From Deltaproteobacteria bacterium (lineage in GTDB: Bacteria; Myxococcota; Kuafuiibacteriia; Kuafuiibacteriales; Kuafuiibacteriaceae), in contig JAVJQW010000033.1 of the NCBI GenBank assembly GCA_040218735.1, positions 64,001 to 128,000 of the forward strand: a stretch of DNA of 64,000 bases, given 5' to 3'. Under the pieces are notes generated by a model that was given only the letters and a program-made list of their open reading frames with translations, was not told the origin of the DNA and made no database searches. Below are positions 46,198 through 59,401 of this stretch, piece after piece. A program made the translations under genes and the position numbers. Position 1 is the stretch's first letter. Each line of letters opens with the position of its first letter.

Positions 46198-48255
46198 TCA
46201 GAACCAGACGCGGTAGCCGAGCTCCGCGCGGATCGTGGTGAGGTTACCCTCGAAGCGCGTCCCGCCGGGCGCCGACAACCCGTTGGCGCTCGCACCCAGG
46301 CCGTTGAGCGTCGCGCCGAGGAAGAGCGCGCCATCGCCGAGGCTGATGCCGCCCTCGACCGTCGCGCGGCCGCCGATACCGGTGTTGCTCCCGCCGCCGA
46401 GGTTCGAGCCGGACACCGAGACACCGCCGCGCTCGATGCGAACGGCGACGCCGGCACGCACGAGGAGCTCGAAGTTCTTCGAAGAGACCACCGCGAACCC
46501 GAAGTCGATCGGGAGCAGCAGCCCTGACACCGCGGTGCGGGTCTCGAGGCGCGACTCACCGACGACGAGTCGCCCGCTCGTGCTCCCGTAGACCAGCTCC
46601 AACCCGGCGCGCACCGCGAGGCGGTGGTCGAGGAGAGGCAGGCGCAGCTCGCCCATGAACCCGCCGCCGACCGTGAGGAGTGAGTCGAAGGAGCTGCCGA
46701 TGAGCGCCGCGCCGGACACACCGAACTTCGGCGACAGCCCCGCGCGCCGCCGCGTGCTCGGCAGCTCGACCTTCTTCTTCTCTTCCTTCGTTCGCAGCGC
46801 CGGCGGGGTGCCGGTCAGCTCGACCGACGTCGTCGCGCGCACCAACTCCAGCGCCTCCCCGGCGACCTTCGGCGCGGCCGGGAGCTCGGCGTACACCTCG
46901 ACGGTCGCGCCCGGAGCACCCGGCGTCCCCGGCGGTATCGACGCGCGGTAACGCCCCAGCCCCGTGCGCGTCGGCTCCAGAACGGCGCCGCCTTCGATGC
47001 GCACCTTCGGCACCGGGTGGTTCGTCAGGTTGCCGGAGGCGTCCTGCACCTCGATCGTGATCGCGCCACGTTCGTCGCGGTCGACCGCTGCGCGCTGGAC
47101 GTTCATGCGGCTCCCGAGCGCCGCGCCGAACTCGACTTCGCCGACCGCCTCCTCGTCCATCAGGATGCGCACCGACTTGGCCTCCGTCGGGCGCTCCAAC
47201 ACGAGCACCTTGGCCGTCGGCGAAACGTCGTCGGTCGCGACGAGCTTCGCGCCCTCCACTGCGATCTCCGGCCAGTAGGGGTCCCCGCCGAACGGCGCAG
47301 GCGGAATTGCGACGACGATCGACGGCCCGATACCCCCGTCCGCGACGTTCTGGCCGGGCAGGGCCATCGCGGTGCCGAGCGACACGAGCCCTGTGGGGAG
47401 GATGACGGAGAGCTCGCGGCGCTCGCCGTCGATCTCCTCGTACGCGCGGACGCGTTTGCCGTAGCGGACGATGACGTCCTCCATCACGGTGCGTCCGTCG
47501 GCGAGTGCGGTGACCGGCTCTTGTTCGATCTCCGCTCCCTCCACCGCGAGCTGCGAGCCGGGTTCGATCTCCACGCTCACCCGCACGGGCGCAAGCACAC
47601 TCACGCCAGCCTGCTCGAGCGCGTAACCGGTCGCCGACGACGCCGCGGCGAGGACGATGATGTGGCTCGGTGCGTCCGGCGGAAGGTCCGGCAACGCGAG
47701 GGTGGTCTGGACACTCAGCTGACGATCGCTCCCGTCCGCGAAGGCGGGCGCCAGCTCACCGGCGTCGGCGAAGAGCTCGAGGCGCTCGACGCTCTCGCCG
47801 CGGGTCGTGGCGGCGACGCCGACGTCGGTCGGCTTGGCGACGTTGATCGAGGCCGGCGAAGCCTGCAGCTCCAGGTCCGGCGCACGCGGCGGCGGGATGA
47901 GCAGCGTGAACGCCTCCGAGACCCGGTTGCCGTTCGACATCGTGAGCGAGATGTCGAGGATCTCGTCCACGGCCGCTCCGCGCGCGGGCGGCGTGTAGAA
48001 CATTTCGACCCGGCCGTCGCCGATTACGCGCACGCCCGTGACGCGCCCCTCGCTCGCCACGATGCGCGGGCGTTTCACCGTCGGTCCGCCGGGGCCGGAC
48101 AGCACCACGACGTGCAGCGGGATGCGCGATCGCCCGTCGGCGACGAGGTACCCCGCGCCGGGCCGCACCACGGAGAGCGTGGGCTGCTCGAGCTGCGCGG
48201 CGGCGACGGTCGGGAACGCGAGCGCCGCCGCGACGATGATCGCGGCGCGTCTCAC
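46198..48255 (-). CDS. Exported multi-Ig-like (invasin-like) protein with C-terminal beta-barrel
   Basis: GTG start overlaps the rng stop. Signal peptide ending AAA; ADG and ITIEVQDASGN Ig-like motifs; C-terminal strands ending AELGYRVWF. Confidence 0.72.
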   Translation of the reverse strand: MRRAAIIVAAALAFPTVAAAQLEQPTLSVVRPGAGYLVADGRSRIPLHVVVLSGPGGPTVKRPRIVASEGRVTGVRVIGDGRVEMFYTPPARGAAVDEILDISLTMSNGNRVSEAFTLLIPPPRAPDLELQASPASINVAKPTDVGVAATTRGESVERLELFADAGELAPAFADGSDRQLSVQTTLALPDLPPDAPSHIIVLAAASSATGYALEQAGVSVLAPVRVSVEIEPGSQLAVEGAEIEQEPVTALADGRTVMEDVIVRYGKRVRAYEEIDGERRELSVILPTGLVSLGTAMALPGQNVADGGIGPSIVVAIPPAPFGGDPYWPEIAVEGAKLVATDDVSPTAKVLVLERPTEAKSVRILMDEEAVGEVEFGAALGSRMNVQRAAVDRDERGAITIEVQDASGNLTNHPVPKVRIEGGAVLEPTRTGLGRYRASIPPGTPGAPGATVEVYAELPAAPKVAGEALELVRATTSVELTGTPPALRTKEEKKKVELPSTRRRAGLSPKFGVSGAALIGSSFDSLLTVGGGFMGELRLPLLDHRLAVRAGLELVYGSTSGRLVVGESRLETRTAVSGLLLPIDFGFAVVSSKNFELLVRAGVAVRIERGGVSVSGSNLGGGSNTGIGGRATVEGGISLGDGALFLGATLNGLGASANGLSAPGGTRFEGNLTTIRAELGYRVWF

Positions 48256-49769
48256 GGGATAGTGCTCGTCGTTCGCACCAGGACTTCGTACGACTCCTGA
48301 TGCAGGTCGCGGCGTGCCTCGACCACGATGTTTCGTCCCAGCTGTTCCTCGAGCTTCACGAGTCGCTTCGAAGTATCCTCCCAGAGGCGGGCCGCGACCT
48401 CGGGCATCGCGCTGACCAGGATCTGACCGTCGGGGTGGAGCTGCGCCTGTCGCTTGATCTCGCGCAGGATGTCCTGACACAGCGTCGCCTTCGAGCGGAT
48501 GCGCCCGCGACCGTCGCAGTAGGGGCAGGGCTCGGTGAGCGCCTTGCCGAGCGAGGGCCGCACACGTTTGCGCGTCATCTCGATCAACCCGAAGTCGCTC
48601 ATCGTCGACACGTGGGTCTTGGCGCGGTCCTTCTCGATCTCCTCTACGAAGCAGCTGAAGACCTTCTCGCGGCTCTCGGGGAGCTGCATGTCGATGAAGT
48701 CGACGATGATGATGCCGCCGAGGTTCCTCAGGCGGATCTGCGCGGCGATCGCCTTGGCCGCTTCGAGGTTCGTCTTGAGGAGCGTCGCTTCGAGGTCCTT
48801 CGACCCGACGAAGCTCGCGGTGTTCACGTCGATCGCGGTGAGCGCCTCCGCCTCGTCGACGACGATCGCGGCGCCGCTCGGCAGCGTGATCTCACGGAGC
48901 AGCGCGCGCTCGACCTCCACCTCGAGCCCGAAGCGATCGAAGATCGGCTCCGGCTCCTCGTAGATCTCCACCCGCTCCGACAGGTGGGGCGCCGACCGGT
49001 TCAGGAGGCGCTTGATACGCTCGCCCTGCTCGGCGCTGTCGACGACCAGCGCTTCGACGTCGTCGTTGAAGAGGTCGCGGGTCGCGCGCAGGACGAGGTC
49101 GAGGTCTGCGAGGAGGAGCGCCGGGACGGGCTGCGTACGTGCGGCCTCCTCGACCTCGCGCCACAGCGAGCGAACGAACTCCATGTCCTTCGCGATGGTG
49201 TCGCTGTCGAGGCCCTCGCAGACGGTGCGAACGATGAAGCCGCCGTCCTCCGGTTGCCGGAGGGATTCGACGAGCTCGCGGAGGCGCTTGCGCTCCGCGT
49301 CCTGCGTGATCTTCCGCGACACGCCGACCTTCTGGATCGTCGGCATGTACACCACGTAGCGCCCGGGGATGGTGACGTAGCCGGTGACACGCGCGCCCTT
49401 CGTGCCGAGGGGGGCCTTCGCGACCTGAACGACGATCTGCTGGCCTTCGCTCAGGAGCTTCTCGATCGGCGGGCGCTCGCGCGGCGGGGGGACGTCGACG
49501 CTGTTTTCGATGTCTTCCGCTGCGTCGCGGGCGAGGTCTTCCTCGGTGACGATGTCGTCCACGTAGAGGAACGCTGCGCGCCCGAGCCCGATCTCCACGA
49601 ACGCCGCCTGCATCCCGGGGAGCACGCGGGTGACCTTGCCGCGGTAGACGTTGCCGACGACGCCGAGGTGATGGTCGCGCTCGATGTAGATCTCTTCGAG
49701 CACGCCGTCCCTGAGGAACGCGACGCGGGCTTCGCCGGGGGCGCGGTTGATGACGATCCGTGCGGACAT
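48252..49769 (-). CDS. rng: Ribonuclease G (Rne/Rng family)
   Basis: GNVYRGKVTRVLPGMQAAFVEIG, AIDVNT, LRNLGGIIIVDFIDM, GLIEMTRKR, CPYCDGRG; 505 aa with no RNase E scaffold tail. Confidence 0.93.
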   Translation of the reverse strand: MSARIVINRAPGEARVAFLRDGVLEEIYIERDHHLGVVGNVYRGKVTRVLPGMQAAFVEIGLGRAAFLYVDDIVTEEDLARDAAEDIENSVDVPPPRERPPIEKLLSEGQQIVVQVAKAPLGTKGARVTGYVTIPGRYVVYMPTIQKVGVSRKITQDAERKRLRELVESLRQPEDGGFIVRTVCEGLDSDTIAKDMEFVRSLWREVEEAARTQPVPALLLADLDLVLRATRDLFNDDVEALVVDSAEQGERIKRLLNRSAPHLSERVEIYEEPEPIFDRFGLEVEVERALLREITLPSGAAIVVDEAEALTAIDVNTASFVGSKDLEATLLKTNLEAAKAIAAQIRLRNLGGIIIVDFIDMQLPESREKVFSCFVEEIEKDRAKTHVSTMSDFGLIEMTRKRVRPSLGKALTEPCPYCDGRGRIRSKATLCQDILREIKRQAQLHPDGQILVSAMPEVAARLWEDTSKRLVKLEEQLGRNIVVEARRDLHQESYEVLVRTTSTIP

Positions 49770-50834: not shown

Positions 50835-51356
50835 ATGACCTTCACGCTGCCCCTCCTCACGCTCTTGTCCGTCGCGGGCCCCGCGCCCGAGGAGGGGCCG
50901 CAAGAGCCGGTCGCGGTCGATGACGCGACGCGGCTCGCCTCGGGGCTCGAGCCGGGCGGCGAGGCGCCCGAGTGGGGCGACAGCCACGGGCTCTCGTTCT
51001 ACCTCGAGTCTGCGGCGGTCTACCTGACGGGCGTGAACGTGGAGTACCGCTACCGCTGGTTCGCGGCGCGCGCGAACGTCACCACCATCGTCGTCGGCCG
51101 GCCCCCCGTCCTCGTCGGCGGCTCGCTGTTCGGCCTCCTCTTCGAGGGCAACCACCACCTCGAGCTGGGCCTGAGCGTCGGCGTCTTCATCACCGACGAG
51201 AACATCGCGATGGTCGCGCCGTCGGTGGGCTACCGCTACCAGGCGCCCGACGGTGGCATCCTCGTGCGCGCCGGATTGTACGCCGCGAACGTCCCGTTCT
51301 TCGAGGAGCGCCGGTTCTTCCCCATCCCTCAGGCTTCGATCGGCTACGCGTTCTGA
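50835..51356 (+). CDS. Small exported outer-membrane beta-barrel-like protein
   Basis: Hydrophobic N-terminus; strands GVNVEYR, HHLELGL, VGYRYQ; ends ASIGYAF. Confidence 0.72.
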   Translation: MTFTLPLLTLLSVAGPAPEEGPQEPVAVDDATRLASGLEPGGEAPEWGDSHGLSFYLESAAVYLTGVNVEYRYRWFAARANVTTIVVGRPPVLVGGSLFGLLFEGNHHLELGLSVGVFITDENIAMVAPSVGYRYQAPDGGILVRAGLYAANVPFFEERRFFPIPQASIGYAF

Positions 51357-51395
51357 GCTGGTCTCGGGGCCCGGTGCGATTTTTCTCGCCGCCCG

Positions 51396-51422
51396 GGGAT
51401 CATTTCTCGACGACGCCGGTCT
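51396..51422 (+). promoter_or_regulatory. Putative ECF-sigma promoter, copy 1 (GGGATC-N16-GGTCT)
   Basis: GGGATCATTTCTCGACGACGCCGGTCT upstream of the ECF gene; same boxes and spacing as 54118..54144. Confidence 0.65.
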
Positions 51423-51443
51423 GTCTGGGCAACGGGGACGACC

Positions 51444-51989
51444 ATGGACCGGCGTCAGGCGATCGCGAAGGCCCGTAGGGGGCGACAGAAGGGCTTTTCG
51501 TGGCTCTTCACCGCCTACCGCGGGCGGATCTTCGCGTTTGTGCGCCGGACCTACGGGCTGGACGACGCACGCGCGAGTGACGTCCTGCAGAACACCTTCG
51601 TGCGCGCGTTCAACGCGCTCGACCAGCTCGAAGACCCGGACGCTTTCGAGCCGTGGCTCCTCAAGATTGCGCGCCGCGAAGCGCTCCGCGTGATCACCGC
51701 GGCGTCGGGCCGACGTGAGACGGCCGTCGAGATCGAGGTGGAGTGCACGCGGCAGGAAGAGCTCGCGGAGCAAGCCGAGCTCGAACGGCTGCGTCGCCTG
51801 ATCCGCGAGGTCGCCGACTCGATCGAGCCGCCCGAGATCCGCGAGACGGCGCTCGCCTACTACTTCGGCGAACGCAAGACGACGGAGGCGCTCGCCGCCG
51901 AGCTCGGCGTTCCACACCCCACGGTGCGCAAGCGGCTGCACTCGTTTCGCAACAAACTCAAACGACGCCTCGCGGAGGAGACGACATGA
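51444..51989 (+). CDS. ECF-type RNA polymerase sigma factor
   Basis: Region 2 ASDVLQNTFVRAF...FEPWLLKIARR; region 4 ALAAELGVPHPTVRKRLH; 181 aa. Confidence 0.9.
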   Translation: MDRRQAIAKARRGRQKGFSWLFTAYRGRIFAFVRRTYGLDDARASDVLQNTFVRAFNALDQLEDPDAFEPWLLKIARREALRVITAASGRRETAVEIEVECTRQEELAEQAELERLRRLIREVADSIEPPEIRETALAYYFGERKTTEALAAELGVPHPTVRKRLHSFRNKLKRRLAEETT

Positions 51990-52558
51990 ACGACCTCGAT
52001 CAGCGAATCGACCGCGCTTTGGAAGACGGCGAGACGGAGCGCGCCGCCGAGCTCCTCGCGGCGCAGCGGGCGCTCGCGGAGGATGTGACCCCGAACCTCG
52101 CGTTCGAGGACTTCGCCGGGCAGCTCCCTATCGAGCGCCGGCGCGCGTGGTGGTGGCCGGCCGCCGGGCTCCTCGCGGCTGCCGCAGCCGCGTTCCTCCT
52201 CGTGCCGCGCGGCGACGGTGTGAAGGGCCCAGGCGACGCGTGCACGCCGGTCGAGCTGCGCGTCGCGCACGAGGGCACGCAGCTCGCCCTGCACCCGACC
52301 GTGGACGATCGGTGCAGCTTCACCGTGCACGCGTTCGAGCTCGACGCCGCGCGCTGGCGGCCCGTCGGCGCAGGAGAAGCCGACGCGCTCCAGCTCGGGC
52401 CGGGGCGGTGGGTCCTCGTCGTGATCGCGTCGCGCGACGCGATCGAGCCCGAGCGCGCCGACGTCGTCGGGGTGCTCAACGCGGTCGGGCGGGGCGCCCC
52501 ACCCACGATTCGGGGCGAACCGGTGTTCGCGGACGTATACGATCTGGGGTCCCGTTGA
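51986..52558 (+). CDS. Single-pass putative anti-sigma factor (ActD/DUF4384-like)
   Basis: ATGA overlap with sigma. Short acidic cytoplasmic helix, TM WWWPAAGLLAAAAAAFLLV, GDGVKG motif, beta-rich outer domain with two Cys. Confidence 0.72.
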   Translation: MNDLDQRIDRALEDGETERAAELLAAQRALAEDVTPNLAFEDFAGQLPIERRRAWWWPAAGLLAAAAAAFLLVPRGDGVKGPGDACTPVELRVAHEGTQLALHPTVDDRCSFTVHAFELDAARWRPVGAGEADALQLGPGRWVLVVIASRDAIEPERADVVGVLNAVGRGAPPTIRGEPVFADVYDLGSR

Positions 52559-54108
52559 AGCTGCTCCTCGCGATGTTGCTGGCCGCCCAGGCGAGCCAGG
52601 GCAAGAAGATCGCGCTCGTCGCGGGCATCGACACGTTCGCGGACGACGCGTGGCCCGCGCTGCGCTACGCCGAGAAGGACGCTCGCGATGTCGCGACCGC
52701 GCTCGCCGACGACTTCGACGAGGTGCGAACGATCGACGGCATCGTCACACGCGGTCGGCTCGAAGCTGAGCTCGCCGACCTCGAAGCGACCAGCGACTAC
52801 GACACCGTCGTCGTCTACCTCTCTACCCACGGCACCCTCGCCTACGACGACGCCGGGCAGCTCGACCGCGTGCTCGTCCTGCACGACACGACGAAGAGCG
52901 ACCCGCGGCGGACGGGCCTCGCCTACGGCGCGCTCACCGCGAGGCTCGAACGCATCCGCGCGCGCCAGAAGCTCGTCATCCTCGCGGCGTGTCACTCCGG
53001 CGCCGGGAAGTCGAAGCTCGACCCCGGCTTGGCCGCCGAGCTGTCGACGCTCAAGGACGGGTTCTTCTCCGAGCCGCACCTCGTGACCGGTGAAGGTCAG
53101 ATCATCCTCGCCGCGAGTGCGTTCGGCGAGACCGCGCGCGAAGACGACAAGCTCGAGAACGACATCTACACGCACTTCTTCCTGAAGGCGCTCGACGACG
53201 CCTTCGACCTCGACGAGGACGGCGCGATCACCGCCCTCGAAGCGCACCACTACGCGCGCCGCGAGACGATCGCCTACACCGGCGGCAAACAACGGCCGAC
53301 GCTGACCGCCGAGGTCGTCGGTGTGGATCCGATCGTCCTGCGCGGCCGACGTGTCCGCCTCGGCCGCCCGATGATCGCCGGCTTCAGCGGCCCCTTCGTC
53401 GGCGCGCGCTTGGAGGTCGACGGGCGCGAGAAGGGCGTCTTGCCGGGGACGTTCGTCGTCGAAGATGGCGCGCGTCGTGTGCGGGTCTTCAGGCCGGGCG
53501 CCGCGGAGCCCATGTTCGACGAGCTCGTCGACGCTGACGCGGGCGCGGTGGTGGTGCTCGACGATCGCGTTCGTCGCGAGGCAACGCCGTGGCGCGTGTA
53601 CGCGGGGGGCGGCTACGCCGCGGTCCGAGGTGAAGTGGGCCGGCGACACCTCCCGGGGTACTTCGTGGTCGGCGCCGGCGCGCGGTACGCGCTCCAGGAG
53701 CGCGTCGGGGTCGGCGCGTCGGTCTACGGTACGCAGATGGGGCAGAACATCCGTTTGCTCTCCGGCGACGGCGTCGAGGTCACGGCCCCGCAGACGATCG
53801 GGCTCGTCCAGGTCAGCGCCGACGTCGCGGTTCAGTTCTACTCAGTGGAGTGGGCCGATGTCGCGGCTCGAGTCCACGCCGGGTGGATCGCAGGGCGTCG
53901 ACGCGTGGAGGTTTCGACGGTGTCCGATCCCGATCGGCTCGTCTCTCACCCGTTCTTCGGAGCGGCGATCGAGGGCACCGCGTGGCCGCACCCGATGTTC
54001 GGCGTTCGCGCCGAGATCGCCGTCGATCTGTCGCTCCCGCAGGTCGACGGCGAGTTGCGCCCGACGTTCGGCGATCGCTACGGTCTGGGGGCCGTCGCGC
54101 GGTTTTGA
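52555..54108 (+). CDS. Exported caspase-family (C14) protease + PEGA-like domain + C-terminal beta-barrel
   Basis: TTGA overlap. Signal peptide MKLLLAMLLAAQA; ALVAGID, LRYAEKDA, His in YLSTHG, Cys in LAACHSG, YTHF, QRP; GARLEVDG; strands ending GLGAVARF. Confidence 0.85.
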   Translation: MKLLLAMLLAAQASQGKKIALVAGIDTFADDAWPALRYAEKDARDVATALADDFDEVRTIDGIVTRGRLEAELADLEATSDYDTVVVYLSTHGTLAYDDAGQLDRVLVLHDTTKSDPRRTGLAYGALTARLERIRARQKLVILAACHSGAGKSKLDPGLAAELSTLKDGFFSEPHLVTGEGQIILAASAFGETAREDDKLENDIYTHFFLKALDDAFDLDEDGAITALEAHHYARRETIAYTGGKQRPTLTAEVVGVDPIVLRGRRVRLGRPMIAGFSGPFVGARLEVDGREKGVLPGTFVVEDGARRVRVFRPGAAEPMFDELVDADAGAVVVLDDRVRREATPWRVYAGGGYAAVRGEVGRRHLPGYFVVGAGARYALQERVGVGASVYGTQMGQNIRLLSGDGVEVTAPQTIGLVQVSADVAVQFYSVEWADVAARVHAGWIAGRRRVEVSTVSDPDRLVSHPFFGAAIEGTAWPHPMFGVRAEIAVDLSLPQVDGELRPTFGDRYGLGAVARF

Positions 54109-54117
54109 TCCGCGCGC

Positions 54118-54144
54118 GGGATCATTTTCGATGGAGCTGGGTCT
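54118..54144 (+). promoter_or_regulatory. Putative ECF-sigma promoter, copy 2, probably driving a leaderless mRNA
   Basis: GGGATCATTTTCGATGGAGCTGGGTCT; ATG 54152 follows after 7 nt with no Shine-Dalgarno. Confidence 0.65.
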
Positions 54145-54151
54145 TCAGGGC

Positions 54152-55666
54152 ATGAGACGAAACCAAACCCTCCTCACCCTCACCTCCCTCCTCGCGCTCG
54201 CCTGTGGAGACCTCGGAAACGGCGGCGAACGTGAGCGTCCGCTCCATGACCTGAGCCGCTTCGCGCTCACGCAGGTCCCGGCCCCGTCGGTGGGCAACTA
54301 TCGACTCGCGGAAGCGTCGAACCCCCGAACCATCCTCACCGTCGACCAGCTCTTCGAGAAGGACGGCGACCTGTGGTCCTTCACGCGACGCTGGCAGCAG
54401 GACGAGCTCATCTTCGCGCGTCACGACGCGAGCGGCGCCGTGATCGACGAACACCGCTTCACCGAGTCCGCCTACGGGCTCGTCGTGAGCGCCACCGCCG
54501 ACGCCAACGGGAACATCTGGATCGCGGGCGGCGGTGTGGTGCAGGAGCTGAACCTCGCGACGGGGGTCGTCGGGCGGAGCTACACGACCGTGCACGCTCC
54601 GGTCGTGGTGAGCGACGGGACGAACCTCTTCCTCGGTGCGCCCGGGCTGCTCCGTTCGATCGATCCGGCGACGGGCGTGGTCGTGCGGGACTTCCAGTCG
54701 ACGATTGACGAGATCGTCGAACGACACGACTGGCAGATCAACACGATCGCGTTCACGACCAACCTCATGTTGATCGGGCTGCGCTGGCAGTTCTCGGACA
54801 TCATCGCGATCGACCGGAGCACCGGCCGCTTCGTGGGCTTCGTCGGCAACGTGCCGCGCGGTGGAAGTGAGCGGGGCGTGTTGCTGGGGCGAGGCGGGAG
54901 CCTCCTGGGGATGTTGGACGACGTCACGCTCGTCGACGTCGCGCTCGGGGCGCCGCTCCCGGAGGTGTCGGTGGACAACGCGATCGCCTTCGAACACTCC
55001 GGCGCGCGGGCGATCACGGCCGTGGGTAACGAGCTCTGGGTGCTCTACGCGGACAACGCCGGAGCGAACCTCGTCGGCTACGACGCCGCGACGCGCGTGC
55101 CGCTGTCGGGGTACGCGCTCGACCCTGCGCTCGCGCAGGAGTTGTACGACGAGGACGACGACGTCTCGCCCTTCGGGCTCACTTACGCGAACAGCGAGAT
55201 GTACGTCGTCGCGATGTCCCCAGGCCTGGACTATCTGGGGAGCCGCGTCCGCGTCATCGATCACACGACGGGCAACCTGGCGCGTTCGTTCGACGTGCCG
55301 CAGATGATGACGGGGCTGTGCCACGACGGCACCACGTTGCACGCGATCGAGACCCCCGGCGGTTTCTTGAACCCGGGCATCGCGCCGCCCGAGCTTCACG
55401 AGCTCGACGACTCGAACGGCCTGTCGCAAACGTCGCGCACCGTGGACCTCGACACGCAGGCGCTGCCTTCGCTCGTGTGTGAGACGAACGCGGTCACGGT
55501 CGGCGCTTCGGACACGCGGCTGCAGGTCCGGCTCGCGACGACGTCGACGGCCGTCGACCACGCGTCGTTCCCGCTCCTCGAGGCCGGCTCCGGCGTCGAG
55601 ATCGGAGCGAGCCTGTTCATGATCGCGCCGTCGCGGAACGTCCTGTTCGATGCGAGTCGGCCGTAG
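54152..55666 (+). CDS. Lipoprotein with beta-propeller-like repeats
   Basis: Lipobox LLALAC; repeated blades (DANGNIW, IDPATG, IDRSTG, IDHTTG, GLCHDGTTL). Confidence 0.78.
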   Translation: MRRNQTLLTLTSLLALACGDLGNGGERERPLHDLSRFALTQVPAPSVGNYRLAEASNPRTILTVDQLFEKDGDLWSFTRRWQQDELIFARHDASGAVIDEHRFTESAYGLVVSATADANGNIWIAGGGVVQELNLATGVVGRSYTTVHAPVVVSDGTNLFLGAPGLLRSIDPATGVVVRDFQSTIDEIVERHDWQINTIAFTTNLMLIGLRWQFSDIIAIDRSTGRFVGFVGNVPRGGSERGVLLGRGGSLLGMLDDVTLVDVALGAPLPEVSVDNAIAFEHSGARAITAVGNELWVLYADNAGANLVGYDAATRVPLSGYALDPALAQELYDEDDDVSPFGLTYANSEMYVVAMSPGLDYLGSRVRVIDHTTGNLARSFDVPQMMTGLCHDGTTLHAIETPGGFLNPGIAPPELHELDDSNGLSQTSRTVDLDTQALPSLVCETNAVTVGASDTRLQVRLATTSTAVDHASFPLLEAGSGVEIGASLFMIAPSRNVLFDASRP

Positions 55667-55669
55667 GCC

Positions 55670-56944
55670 TCAAGGGCACGCCGACGCGTCCACCACGATC
55701 TCGCCGAACAGACGAATGCTGTTGTTCGGGATGTCGACGTCGAACGGGAGCAGGTCGACCCCCGAGCCCGTCATCGGCTTCACGCGCGCGTAGACGTTGT
55801 ACGTCCCGTCCGGGGTCCCCGCCGGGACGCGGAAGACGCGCCCGATGATCTTGCTGCTCATGGGCGGAACGTCGAACGTGCGTGTGTCCGGTGATTGAAG
55901 ATCGGCGGCGGCGCCGTTCACCTCGAAGACCTGGTCCTCGGAGAACCACAGCTGCTCTTCGGTGATCAGGTTGATCGTCGAGCGGTTGTTCAGCGTGTAG
56001 CGAACCTGGACGTAGTCACCCGCGCAGACCTCGTAGCCGCCGATCGGAAAGGCGCCCGCCGGGAGGCTGGGATCCACGCCGCAGTACACCGCGCCCGCGT
56101 GAATGTCGGCGTAGGTGTCGAAGCGCGGCGACACCTTGCAGTTGTAGACCTGCTTCGCTTTGTTCGTGCCTGCTTCGGCCGCCGTCTCGAACCAGGTGTT
56201 CGACACCGTCAGATCGATCGCGCTCGTCGGGTTCGCCGCCTCGTACGTCACCTGGAGCCCGAGGAGGTCGTCCGGGAACAGCTCGGCGCGCGGCACTTCG
56301 TTCGCGCCGCGCGTCCACGCGTCGACGCCGTACGCCATCACCGAGAGGTTCTCCTTCGCGTGCGCGAGCCCGAGTGTGTGTCCGATCTCGTGCAGGAGGA
56401 TCGCGCGGAACGAGGACCCGCCGGGGAACCCGATCGCCGACAGCCCGAGGTCGTCCGGCGGCCCGAAGATCCAGTTGAAGGACTTGTTGAAGCGTGCGTG
56501 CGCCTCGACGTAGGTGCAGCCACCGAGGTCCGGGTCCGTACCGCCGACCGCGGCCTTGTTGATGTTGCTCGTGAAGCCGACGACGATCGAGTGGTCCGGA
56601 TAGCTGTCGTCCTTCTTGACCGAAGCGAGGTCGATGTCGCCCGTCATGAGGTCACCCGCCTCGAGCCGGATGAAGGTGTTGTTCGCGGTGTTGTACTCCT
56701 CGATCACCGCGTCGATGTCCGCCATCAGGTAGAGGAGGTACACAAGCGACTCGACGCCCGTGATGCCCACGCCGTCGAGGTAGTCGAAGAAGCTGTCCGT
56801 CGCGACGTGGACCTGCACCGGCGTGGAGAAGTCCCAGCTCGCGCCGCCCTGCGGGCAGTCGGACTGAAGGCGGCGGAACGCGTGGGCGGGGGTCGCCGCG
56901 AGCGACGCGGCGATGAGGAGTGCGCAGGAGATGGTTCGCGTCAT
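55670..56944 (-). CDS. Secreted metzincin (matrixin-like) zinc metalloprotease with C-terminal Ig/CARDB-like domain
   Basis: Signal peptide ending AHA; HEIGHTLGLAH; Met-turn SVM; VPAGTPDGTY and NN at the C-terminus. Confidence 0.82.
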   Translation of the reverse strand: MTRTISCALLIAASLAATPAHAFRRLQSDCPQGGASWDFSTPVQVHVATDSFFDYLDGVGITGVESLVYLLYLMADIDAVIEEYNTANNTFIRLEAGDLMTGDIDLASVKKDDSYPDHSIVVGFTSNINKAAVGGTDPDLGGCTYVEAHARFNKSFNWIFGPPDDLGLSAIGFPGGSSFRAILLHEIGHTLGLAHAKENLSVMAYGVDAWTRGANEVPRAELFPDDLLGLQVTYEAANPTSAIDLTVSNTWFETAAEAGTNKAKQVYNCKVSPRFDTYADIHAGAVYCGVDPSLPAGAFPIGGYEVCAGDYVQVRYTLNNRSTINLITEEQLWFSEDQVFEVNGAAADLQSPDTRTFDVPPMSSKIIGRVFRVPAGTPDGTYNVYARVKPMTGSGVDLLPFDVDIPNNSIRLFGEIVVDASACP

Positions 56945-57662: not shown

Positions 57663-58616
57663 CTACAGCTTCTCGATCAGCTCCGGCACGACCTTGAACA
57701 GGTCGGCCACGAGCCCGTAGTCGGCGATCTGGAAGATCGGCGCGTCCGGGTCCTTGTTGATCGCGACGATCGTCTTCGAACCCTTCATGCCCGCGACGTG
57801 CTGGATCGCGCCGGAGATTCCGATCGCGAAGTACAGCTCCGGCGCGACGACCTTGCCGGTCTGGCCGACCTGCATGTCGTTGGGCACCCAGCCCGCGTCG
57901 ACGACGGCGCGGCTGGCGCCGATGCCGGCGTTGAGCTTGTCGGCGAGGGGCTCGATCAGCGCCGGGAAGTTGCCGGCCTCCTTGAGGCCGCGACCGCCCG
58001 AGATGACGACGCGCGCTTCGGTGAGCTCCGGACGCTCCGACTCGATCTTGTCGAACTTCACGTACTCCGTCTTGAGCCCGCCGAGGTCGACGGAGAGCGC
58101 CTTCACCTCACCCGCGTCGCCCGGCTGGGCGGCGTCGAACTCGGTGGGGCGCGTCGTGATCACCTTCGTGTCCGTGGTGATCTCGACCGTCGCGATGACG
58201 TTACCCGCCTGCACCGGACGGCGCACCGCGAAGCCTTCGTCGCCCGCGAAGCCGAGGATGTCCGAAGCCATCCCCGCGCCGAGGAGCGCCGCCGCGCGCG
58301 GCATGACGTCCTTGCCGTGCGACGTCGCCGCCATTACGACCACCGTCGCGCCCGCGGCCTCCGCGCCGGCCTTGATGACCTTCGCGTACGCCTCGGCGAG
58401 CGGGTTCGCGAGCGCCGCGTCGTCCGCCACGTGGACGGCCGCGCCGTACTTCGCGAGCTCACCTGCGGCTTCGCCGATGCCCGAGCCGATCGCGAGCAGC
58501 TGCACGTTGCCGCCGCTGCGCTTCGCCGCCTCGTTCGCAAACGTGACCGCGGTGAATGTGGCGCCCTTGATCGCGCCTTCCGAGATTTCGCTGACGACCA
58601 GTACGTTCGACATCAC
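57663..58616 (-). CDS. etfA: Electron transfer flavoprotein alpha subunit
   Basis: ELTEARVVISGGRG, GASRAVVDAGW, QVGQTGK, GISGAIQH, AINKDPDAPIF. Confidence 0.96.
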   Translation of the reverse strand: MMSNVLVVSEISEGAIKGATFTAVTFANEAAKRSGGNVQLLAIGSGIGEAAGELAKYGAAVHVADDAALANPLAEAYAKVIKAGAEAAGATVVVMAATSHGKDVMPRAAALLGAGMASDILGFAGDEGFAVRRPVQAGNVIATVEITTDTKVITTRPTEFDAAQPGDAGEVKALSVDLGGLKTEYVKFDKIESERPELTEARVVISGGRGLKEAGNFPALIEPLADKLNAGIGASRAVVDAGWVPNDMQVGQTGKVVAPELYFAIGISGAIQHVAGMKGSKTIVAINKDPDAPIFQIADYGLVADLFKVVPELIEKL

Positions 58617-59401
58617 AGCACCTTCGCTTCGTTCTTGAGCTTACCGAGCAGCTCGTCCACGTCCTCGACCTTCACGCCCGCCTGCCGCTCGGGCGGCTCG
58701 GCGTACTTCACGGTGCGGACCTTCGCGGAGACGTCGACGCCGAGGCTGTCGACCGCGATCTCCTTCACCTCCTTCTTCTTCGCCTTCATGATGCCGGGCA
58801 GCGAGGCGAAGCGGGGGTGGTTGAGGCGAAGGTCGGTCGTGACGATCGCCGGGAGCTTCAGCTTGAGCGTCTCGAGGCCGCCGTCGACCTCACGCAGCAC
58901 GGTCGCGTGACCGTCCGCGACTTCGACGCCGGGCTTTTGCGCCTTCTCCTCGTCGGAGTCGAGCGCGGCCGTCTTCGACGCAAACGTCGCCTGCGGCCAG
59001 TCGAGGTACCCCGCGAGGAGCTGACCCGCCTGGTTGGCGTCGTCGTCGGTGGCCTGCTTGCCCATGATCACCAGATCGGGCTGCTCGTCTTCGACGATCT
59101 TCTGCAGCAGGCGCGCGACGGCGTCGGGGTCGAGCTCGTCGCTGAGCACGAGGATGCCGCGGTTGGCACCCATCGCCAGACCCTGTCGGATCTGCTGCGT
59201 GGCGTCTTTGCTACCAATGCTCGCGACGACGACTTCGCCGCCGTGGGCCTTGGCCAGGCGCAGCGCTTCTTCGACGGCGATTTCGTCGAAGGGGTTGGCT
59301 ACGAAGTTCATGCCGTCGGTCACCAGGCCGGACCCGTCGGGCGCGATCTTGACCTTGCGCTCGTAGTCCGTGACCCGCTTGACGGTGACGAGGATCTTCA
59401 T
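58613..59401 (-). CDS. etfB: Electron transfer flavoprotein beta subunit
   Basis: MKILVTVKRV, NPFDEIAVEEALRL, GKQATDDD, REVDGG, PRFASLPGIMKAKKK. Confidence 0.96.
   Translation of the reverse strand: MKILVTVKRVTDYERKVKIAPDGSGLVTDGMNFVANPFDEIAVEEALRLAKAHGGEVVVASIGSKDATQQIRQGLAMGANRGILVLSDELDPDAVARLLQKIVEDEQPDLVIMGKQATDDDANQAGQLLAGYLDWPQATFASKTAALDSDEEKAQKPGVEVADGHATVLREVDGGLETLKLKLPAIVTTDLRLNHPRFASLPGIMKAKKKEVKEIAVDSLGVDVSAKVRTVKYAEPPERQAGVKVEDVDELLGKLKNEAKVL

Follow-up and report, generated by a model that had tools for sequence, protein, structure and literature searches.

A conserved sigma factor/single-pass protein/caspase-barrel cassette of Myxococcota and its possible role in regulated anti-sigma proteolysis

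We have analysed a 64,000-nucleotide (nt) window of DNA from a Deltaproteobacteria bacterium (GenBank assembly GCA_040218735.1, contig JAVJQW010000033.1, positions 64,001 to 128,000), in which four genes in a row encode a sigma factor of the extracytoplasmic function (ECF) type, a single-pass anti-sigma-like protein, a caspase-like protease ending in a predicted outer-membrane barrel, and a lipoprotein. We propose that the caspase acts on the anti-sigma as its site-1 protease, in a self-regulated, four-gene envelope signalling cassette, and we give this proposal an even chance of being right. The protease would be suspended in the periplasm from the inner face of the outer membrane, would perhaps be activated by self-cutting at the invariant Lys167 of a disordered loop, and would cut the anti-sigma after Lys80, in the linker between its membrane helix and its DUF4384-like periplasmic domain. 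The remaining stub (7 residues here, 6-21 in relatives) would then be open to an RseP-type site-2 protease, and the freed sigma factor would transcribe its own operon as well as the lipoprotein gene. M50 site-2 protease genes are present in the genome. The likeliest source of the input signal would be either the lipoprotein, which varies among related loci, or the state of the envelope itself.

The four genes lie on the (+) strand, in a region of 68-72% G+C; coordinates are given as window positions. The sigma gene (51444-51989, 181 amino acids) overlaps the anti-sigma-like gene (51986-52558, 190 amino acids) through an ATGA at 51986-51989, where the stop of the former meets the start of the latter. 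A TTGA at 52555-52558 likewise joins the anti-sigma stop to the TTG start of the caspase gene (52555-54108, 517 amino acids). Both overlaps were read directly in the sequence and are as described in the first-pass annotation, which had recognised the three genes as coupled. The lipoprotein gene (54152-55666, 504 amino acids) follows after a gap of 43 nt. Profile searches upheld the earlier call of an ECF sigma factor, with matches above cut-off to Pfam Sigma70_r2 (E value 3.1e-11, 43.3 bits; cut-off 24) and to NCBIfam sigma70-ECF TIGR02937 (E 4e-20, 72.1 bits; cut-off 42.9). Sigma70_r4 was matched slightly below its cut-off of 24.1 (E 1.9e-4, 21.3 bits). Judged by these matches, the first gene product is a clear ECF (group 4) sigma factor that contains the sigma-2 and sigma-4 regions only.

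To place the cassette among its relatives, we have surveyed one genome per species and kept the best 80 loci of 237 protease relatives; at E values of 1e-30 or below, the protease family as such comprised 1455 representative clusters. The related loci were nearly all from Myxococcota, including M. xanthus (L047), Corallococcus, Archangium, Hyalangium, Anaeromyxobacter and many uncultured members. Sigma linkage was counted in the 73 of 80 loci with at least 2 kb of upstream sequence. A sigma homologue was found by tblastn on the same strand within 2.5 kb upstream in 66 of these 73, and a sigma profile recovered five of the seven misses, giving 71/73. In the remaining two, the sigma gene was on the opposite strand (L057) or none was found (L017). 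The gene between the sigma and caspase genes encodes 220-316 amino acids in relatives, with a single hydrophobic helix near residue 85-135 in 65 of 68 middle proteins; the other three were wrongly picked open reading frames (ORFs) and were left out. The order sigma, single-pass protein, caspase-barrel is therefore that of 71/73 loci, in line with the gene linkage that had been anticipated. Six of the loci (L034, L083, L040, L041, L049 and L063) carry myxobacterial-type cassettes, 37-44% identical to the window protease, under the titles Comamonas sp., uncultured Enterobacterales and a “Gammaproteobacteria” bin (four loci); these titles may stem from mislabelled or mis-binned records, or the range of the family may be wider.

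The model of the window's anti-sigma-like protein (predicted local distance difference test, pLDDT, 81) shows, starting from the N-terminus, a pair of short helices, a stretch of disorder, a membrane helix (residues 56-72), a linker devoid of secondary structure (73-89) and a beta-sandwich on the periplasmic side (90-189). The GDGVKG motif pointed out in the earlier description of a single-pass protein corresponds to residues 76-81, in the linker directly after the predicted membrane helix. From its position, translational coupling and topology, we infer that this middle protein binds and inhibits the sigma factor. It had no Pfam match, be it to DUF4384 (PF14326) or to zf-HC2; among the aligned relatives, 5/42 matched DUF4384 (best E 5.2e-12) and 3/42 matched zf-HC2. 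A DUF4384-type homology of the window's ectodomain is suggested by its alignment with these relatives together with its beta-sandwich model. Comparison of the model with the PDB (Foldseek) returned nothing at E up to 0.001, and only weak FN3/Ig-like rows.

The alignment of the middle proteins has a mean column identity of 23%, and Lys-Gly is the only near-invariant motif in it. Lys is found in 65 of 66 aligned proteins and is followed by Gly in 64/66, the exceptions being one K-N and one R-G. The residue before Lys is V, I or L in 43/66, and the one further back is Gly in 48/66. In relatives the Lys is located 6-21 residues past the membrane helix (median 14), with a single outlier at 52. A conservation survey of this motif had been called for at the outset, and both the counts and the unstructured juxtamembrane linker of the model agree with the cleavage site then suggested. 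We thus propose Lys80-Gly81, encoded at 52223-52228 (+), as the candidate site, on the basis of conservation and of the unstructured linker.

The protease, predicted to be exported by the Sec route, matched Peptidase_C14 (PF00656) with an E value of 2.6e-10 (40.8 bits; cut-off 21.4), and CHAT was also above cut-off (E 9.2e-7). An AlphaFold2 model built on 31 homologues (mean pLDDT 87.1) comprises a signal-peptide helix (about residues 1-16), a C14 caspase domain (17-252), a beta-sandwich (260-334) and eight strands (346-516). When the caspase part was compared with the PDB by Foldseek, the best match was the caspase-Ig3 region of the MALT1 paracaspase (E 1.4e-11), and GSU0716 of Geobacter, metacaspase 4 and caspases were also retrieved. 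The protease family profile gave 0 matches among PDB sequences at 0.001. The catalytic dyad that had been described as intact is formed by His92 (codon 52828-52830, +) and Cys146 (codon 52990-52992, +), which were invariant in 31/31 aligned homologues and in 78/78 sequences of a larger alignment; the dyad motifs were intact in all 80 related loci. Three acidic residues, Asp42, Glu192 and Glu196, are invariant or almost so in the family. The beta-sandwich had been termed PEGA-like. A sandwich was indeed modelled at 260-334, and Pfam PEGA (PF08308), run on residues 255-345 alone, stayed below its cut-off (E 0.086, 13.2 bits vs. 20.8), which makes the PEGA-like name a weak one.

Residues 165-178, after the catalytic strand, form the sole long low-confidence loop of the protease model (pLDDT below 50). 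This loop contains Lys167 (codon 53053-53055, +), which is K in 78/78 aligned proteases, with I, T, L or V before it in 76/78 and A, S or G after it in 75/78. Such surroundings, aliphatic/Thr before and a small residue after, resemble those of the Lys site in the anti-sigma. In caspases and metacaspases, processing between the large and small subunits happens in a loop at such a position, and Lys167 is thus a candidate autoprocessing site. Meta-, ortho- and paracaspases prefer Lys/Arg at P1.

The same features were encountered within the genome of the window (11.6 Mb), which encodes six more protease paralogues of about 30% identity, each with a sigma gene upstream. The corresponding sigma/single-pass/caspase-barrel cassettes are located at C46:479-3918 (-), where a lipoprotein gene follows, and, all on the (+) strand, at C6:72014-74914, C61:22371-26430, C61:221721-224806, C17:152974-155653 and C8:65578-68503. 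An R-T-K-G is found just past the membrane helix in five of the six paralogous middle proteins, and a K-G some nine residues past the catalytic Cys in all six paralogous proteases, all of which end in barrel-like tails. Since the Lys motifs recur in the paralogues, the motif pair is a hallmark of the superfamily and not of one clade. Fused arrangements were looked for as well: a search for longer forms of the caspase domain gave 16 matches, all of them distant caspase plus WD40, TPR or helicase architectures, and none of these 16 was a fusion to an anti-sigma or to DUF4384.

The C-terminal part of the protease (53590-54105, +) is predicted to be an OmpA/Ail-like, eight-strand outer-membrane barrel, with strands at residues 346-357, 369-379, 384-402, 408-431, 434-451, 460-476, 482-493 and 504-516. 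The structure comparison foreseen for this part gave OmpA (E 1.8e-7) and Ail (1.9e-7) in Foldseek, and the protein ends in Phe, so that the barrel first suspected from the sequence finds support in the model; Pfam OMP_b-brl was below threshold (E 0.013). Among complete homologues from genomes (511-548 amino acids), 60/77 have F, W or Y as their last residue. In the model, strands 1, 3, 5 and 7 are followed by connections of 5-11 residues and the other strands by connections of 2-5. In small eight-strand barrels of the OmpA/Ail type, both termini are usually periplasmic. Based on the loop lengths and on this usual topology, the caspase should hang beneath the outer membrane and not lie on the surface; the signal peptide points the same way, and in the model both the caspase and the beta-sandwich should face the periplasm. 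The first-pass annotation had the protease sensing a surface cue, which finds no support in a small eight-strand anchor whose odd-numbered loops count 5-11 residues and in a caspase predicted to be periplasmic. Display of the caspase on the surface in the manner of an autotransporter was considered too, and was rejected because the model has eight strands and not 12, and no linker helix inside the barrel. Two predictions of a complex between the caspase plus sandwich (17-340) and the anti-sigma ectodomain (72-190) both scored 0.00; they were run without controls and count neither way.

The fourth protein of the window carries a lipobox, L-A-L-A-C, at residues 14-18, ending at Cys18, and had nothing significant in Pfam. 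It had been announced as a beta-propeller lipoprotein. The lipobox secures the second half of that description, and the first half draws on structural neighbours in the Atlas, which were WD40, SGL/NHL-type and glutamine-cyclotransferase propellers (best TM score 0.56, to a WD40 cluster; Atlas model pLDDT 0.68). From these neighbours, the protein is probably a beta-propeller. A word-indexed search found two homologues only, one of them 3' of the nearest related cassette (L010), and no kinship was detectable with the fourth gene of L008 (BLASTP E 0.12). Across the survey, 65 of the 69 loci with enough sequence had a same-strand ORF starting between -120 and +400 nt from the caspase stop, most often with a one-base overlap with that stop, and a strict lipobox pattern was present in at least 47 of the 65 encoded proteins. 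Ten sampled proteins gave eight matches to CarboxypepD_reg, one to Laminin_G_3 and one to an RCC1 propeller; the window's protein is a further type, unlike any of these. With a lipobox in most and differing domains, the fourth position is that of a lipoprotein of variable make.

A variable lipoprotein and one partner in each membrane would also suit a relay that works by binding without cutting. The outer-membrane protein would contact the anti-sigma ectodomain in a FecA-FecR-like manner and transmit a conformational signal; in another form of this explanation, the ectodomain would restrain the protease, and the true substrates of the protease would be other envelope proteins, such as the lipoprotein, whose variability fits a substrate or a ligand-binding partner. 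We consider such a relay quite improbable, because the dyad is kept in 80/80 loci, with zero pseudo-enzyme forms, which argues that catalysis matters, and because it leaves the conserved Lys motif unexplained.

The proposed self-regulation is compatible with two promoter-like motifs. The first, GGATCATTT-N12-GGTCT at 51397-51422 (+), has its GGTC 26 nt 5' of the sigma start codon; position 51396, where the region originally singled out begins, coincides with it. The second is an exact copy at 54119-54144 (+), with 7 nt between the end of its GGTCT and the start codon of the lipoprotein gene. These two were the only exact matches in the window, none further appeared with two mismatches allowed (0.09 expected), and they were the only sites in the 11.6-Mb genome. 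Many related loci have a GGTC 26-27 nt before the estimated sigma start, with a clade-specific element upstream at fixed spacing, namely GTGTGGCC in Myxococcaceae/Archangiaceae-type loci and TTGAGAC in another group. Such pairs of GGTC and clade-specific elements look like co-evolving, autoregulated ECF promoters. The copy before the fourth gene is in keeping with the earlier idea that the lipoprotein is induced by the sigma factor, as far as a promoter-like sequence can indicate it. Should the GGTCT of the second motif serve as a -10 element, the mRNA of the lipoprotein would have little or no leader; the spacer of this motif contains an in-frame ATG, at 54131. A scan for Sigma-70-type promoters gave 0 sites. 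Relaxed patterns yielded a few other genomic sites, the best of which, on contig C55, was judged to be chance because no same-strand ORF of at least 100 amino acids follows it.

Two further recurrent elements were observed in related loci. Loci of the Myxococcaceae/Archangiaceae type carry the promoter-like dyad of their clade, GTGGCC-N16-GGTC, a second time: it lies within the caspase gene, at its 3' end, and precedes the lipoprotein gene by 200-250 nt (at about 7288-7330 in L033, L037, L053, L058, L066, L070, L071, L073, L074, L076, L079-L082, L084, L085, L087 and others). This may be an internal promoter of the fourth gene or a coding coincidence shared by descent, and as the coding sequence is shared by descent, no more than one observation can be credited to the recurrence. 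Loci of the Anaeromyxobacter type have a GTGGCCAG-N-GGGGTC dyad at the sigma gene's 3' end, directly ahead of where the anti-sigma gene starts (at about 4956-5000 in L024, L026, L029-L031, L036, L043 and L062).

A gene organisation of this kind can also be read as output and not input, which is the main rival of our proposal and one that we regard as rather unlikely. The caspase-barrel and the lipoprotein would then be members of the sigma regulon that serve envelope remodelling or protein processing, the anti-sigma would be inactivated otherwise, and the Lys-Gly would be recognised by another protease or be structural. The translational coupling of the caspase gene to the sigma and anti-sigma genes, by which the protease would be made only when the sigma is active, speaks for this, as does the fourth gene's own copy of the promoter-like motif; moreover, it is common for genes 3' of an ECF sigma/anti-sigma pair to belong to the regulon. 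What it leaves unexplained is that the anti-sigma has a single near-invariant motif, a Lys plus a small residue in an exposed linker, that a like motif is found in the protease's own disordered loop, in the family and in six paralogues, and that the anti-sigma ectodomain is of the DUF4384 type.

Several observations weigh against the caspase as site-1 protease. Because the protease is co-transcribed with the sigma factor, the cassette would be a positive feedback loop, which fits an output role equally well. The linker between the protease and its barrel is short (335-345) and the Lys-Gly is only 7 residues from the inner membrane; with the outer-membrane tether at one side and the Lys-Gly beside the inner membrane at the other, the protease is unlikely to have constitutive access. 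Two positions before the catalytic Cys, all sequences of the window's subfamily (78/78) have Ala. In metacaspases and MALT1 this residue is an Asp that aids binding of a basic P1 residue, and Asp is also found in the six paralogous proteases (6/6). The Lys specificity of the subfamily is thus not secured, as judged from the alignment. In addition, H-x4-C-x2-C, an N-terminal zinc motif as in class I (zf-HC2) anti-sigma factors, is present in 58/66 anti-sigma relatives and is lacking in the window's anti-sigma as well as in L008 and L010, the two relatives closest to it, and the N-terminus of the window's protein consists of two short helices only. With this short N-terminus and no Cys motif, its sigma binding is deduced from position. 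Finally, weak terminator-like hairpins with T-rich tails (51383-51399 and 54106-54124, +) overlap the -35-like part of both promoter-like motifs. Three such hairpins were found vs. 2.4 expected from shuffles, which is no excess; a terminator may abut the promoter at each motif, or the overlap may be chance. The nearest relative, L010, does not have the same -35-like element before its sigma gene, and it shows a similar GATGCAT...GTCT arrangement before its lipoprotein gene.

The separation of protease and substrate may itself be a regulatory principle. We offer, as a tentative and rather doubtful extension of the site-1 proposal, that the anchoring of the two proteins in opposite membranes lets the cassette read the physical state of the envelope. 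Three cases can be imagined in which the caspase would come within reach of the Lys-Gly linker, 6-21 residues from the inner membrane. The barrel could fail to insert, so that the protease itself would be the reporter in an outer-membrane assembly alarm; the two membranes could approach each other; or the variable lipoprotein could deliver or release the caspase. If this were true, the seven cassettes of this one genome, each with its own sigma factor, promoter and lipoprotein, would be multiplexed, caspase-triggered envelope sensors, and ECF signalling would have, in the caspase-barrel proteins, its first dedicated family of caspase-fold site-1 proteases.

The surroundings of the cassette are those of an ordinary chromosomal setting, with RNase G and two electron-transfer flavoprotein subunits flanking it (48252-49769 and 57663-59401, both -). 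Immediately 3' and convergent, an M10/matrixin-like zinc metalloprotease is encoded at 55670-56944 (-; PF00413, E 1.6e-7); it has a 42%-identical paralogue on contig C9 and is outside the conserved cassette. Just 5' of the cassette, 50835-51356 (+) encodes a 173-amino-acid protein with a signal-peptide-like start and a C-terminal Y-A-F. This protein had no Pfam or NCBIfam match, has a single paralogue on contig C54 (33% identity), was not adjacent to the cassette in the other 80 loci, and may be a small outer-membrane protein.

This setting bears on the possibility of a cell-death or defence module, in which phage or developmental cues would release the caspase as an executioner. Several defence systems employ caspase-fold proteases, as stated in the available part of PMC8195603, and the accessible text of PMC3501461 speculates on a link between myxobacterial metacaspases and developmental autolysis. 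Such a function appears highly improbable for the present cassette: the protease is exported and membrane-anchored and has no cytoplasmic effector domain, its neighbours (RNase G, electron-transfer flavoprotein) are housekeeping genes, seven parallel cassettes exist in this one genome, and the family is carried on the chromosome and inherited widely among Myxococcota.

Among the signal transducers of bacteria, ECF sigma factors form a major class, and for most ECF groups neither the activating protease nor the signal is known. If caspase-driven cleavage is true, caspase-fold proteases would serve regularly, and non-lethally, in signalling across the envelope of bacteria, a candidate cleavage site and a promoter would both be defined for a large family, and DUF4384 would acquire a function, that of accompanying the substrates of caspases. 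The family as a whole appears, from its sequences, to be a variant of regulated anti-sigma proteolysis not previously described. The window copy is a further, somewhat reduced member, given its short anti-sigma with no Cys motif, the separate promoter of its propeller-lipoprotein and the Ala that replaces the Asp before the catalytic Cys.

Part of this gene arrangement has been in the literature since 2012. Asplund-Samuelsson et al. (PMC3501461) reported metacaspase and sigma-factor genes together in four M. xanthus operons, and the same co-occurrence in Anaeromyxobacter, Haliangium and Sorangium; the consulted part of that paper gives no mechanism. These operons, including those of M. xanthus DK1622, are almost certainly of the same kind as the window's, and what the paper describes, in that same part, is the co-occurrence with sigma factors only, with no anti-sigma, barrel anchor, lipoprotein, Lys-Gly motif or mechanism. 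The opening statement that myxobacterial neighbourhoods were known and no mechanism had been described therefore agrees with this source, within the part consulted, and with the literature searched. Full-text searches returned no description of the barrel-anchored type, of the Lys-Gly site, of the promoter or of a mechanism, and none of the terms “caspase”, “CHAT”, “C14”, “DUF4384” and “PEGA” occurs in the main text of the ECF reclassification (PMC7826278), whose supplementary group descriptions may cover the context. In the sections available of the respective papers, CHAT proteins are noted in the genomic context of ECF54 (PMC8999054), and EACC2-caspase systems can include an ECF sigma factor (PMC8195603). 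The cassette is widespread in myxobacteria and its sigma-metacaspase core long known, and the cleavage mechanism proposed here was not found in print.

One known system with a similar scheme is that of two-step proteolysis, and M50 genes for its second step are at hand in the genome. In the RseA/DegS/RseP sigma-E pathway, a periplasmic site-1 cut of a single-pass anti-sigma is followed by an M50 site-2 protease, the same two steps as proposed here. DegS is an inner-membrane serine protease that is triggered by the C-termini of outer-membrane proteins and is not encoded with the sigma gene, whereas the candidate site-1 enzyme of the window is a co-operonic cysteine protease that is itself a predicted outer-membrane protein. 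FecA-FecR-FecI shares the three-part logic of an outer-membrane protein, an inner-membrane anti-sigma and an ECF sigma factor; its outer-membrane part is a 22-strand TonB-dependent transducer and its site-1 protease is separate, while the window has instead an eight-strand anchor that carries the protease. The MALT1 paracaspase is alike in that its caspase domain is directly followed by an Ig-like sandwich, and differs in being eukaryotic and cytosolic, with no barrel and 9-17% identity only.

Two systems unite a caspase fold with the control of an ECF sigma factor. According to the portions available of the report on the Type III-E CRISPR “craspase” (10.1101/2022.08.17.504292), the caspase-fold Csx29 (TPR-CHAT) cuts Csx30, which holds an ECF sigma factor; the C-terminal domains of some Csx30 proteins are DUF4384, a domain often fused to protease domains. 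The release of a sigma factor by cutting its binding partner would be common to both, as is the occurrence of DUF4384 in some Csx30 and in 5/42 anti-sigma relatives, and what sets the craspase apart, in the same portions, is that it is cytoplasmic, RNA-guided and membrane-free. The second is DdvS/DdvA of M. xanthus, described in 2024 (PMC11506125). As far as the accessible text of that paper goes, DdvS/DdvA and the cassette family both combine an ECF sigma factor, a single-pass anti-sigma (of the zinc type in DdvA and in most relatives of the window's protein) and a caspase-fold module that is periplasmic in DdvA (TPR-CHAT) and predicted to be so here, and in both a caspase-like cut of a flexible juxtamembrane linker is proposed to precede RseP, in DdvA by self-cleavage. 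The protease module of DdvA is fused to the anti-sigma and would, by the same text, act in trans within a dimer. In contrast, the window encodes a separate C14-type protein with a predicted outer-membrane barrel anchor and no TPR, and its anti-sigma ectodomain is a small, DUF4384-like sandwich. If the proposed cleavage is true, the cassette would be a trans-acting counterpart to the DdvA model.

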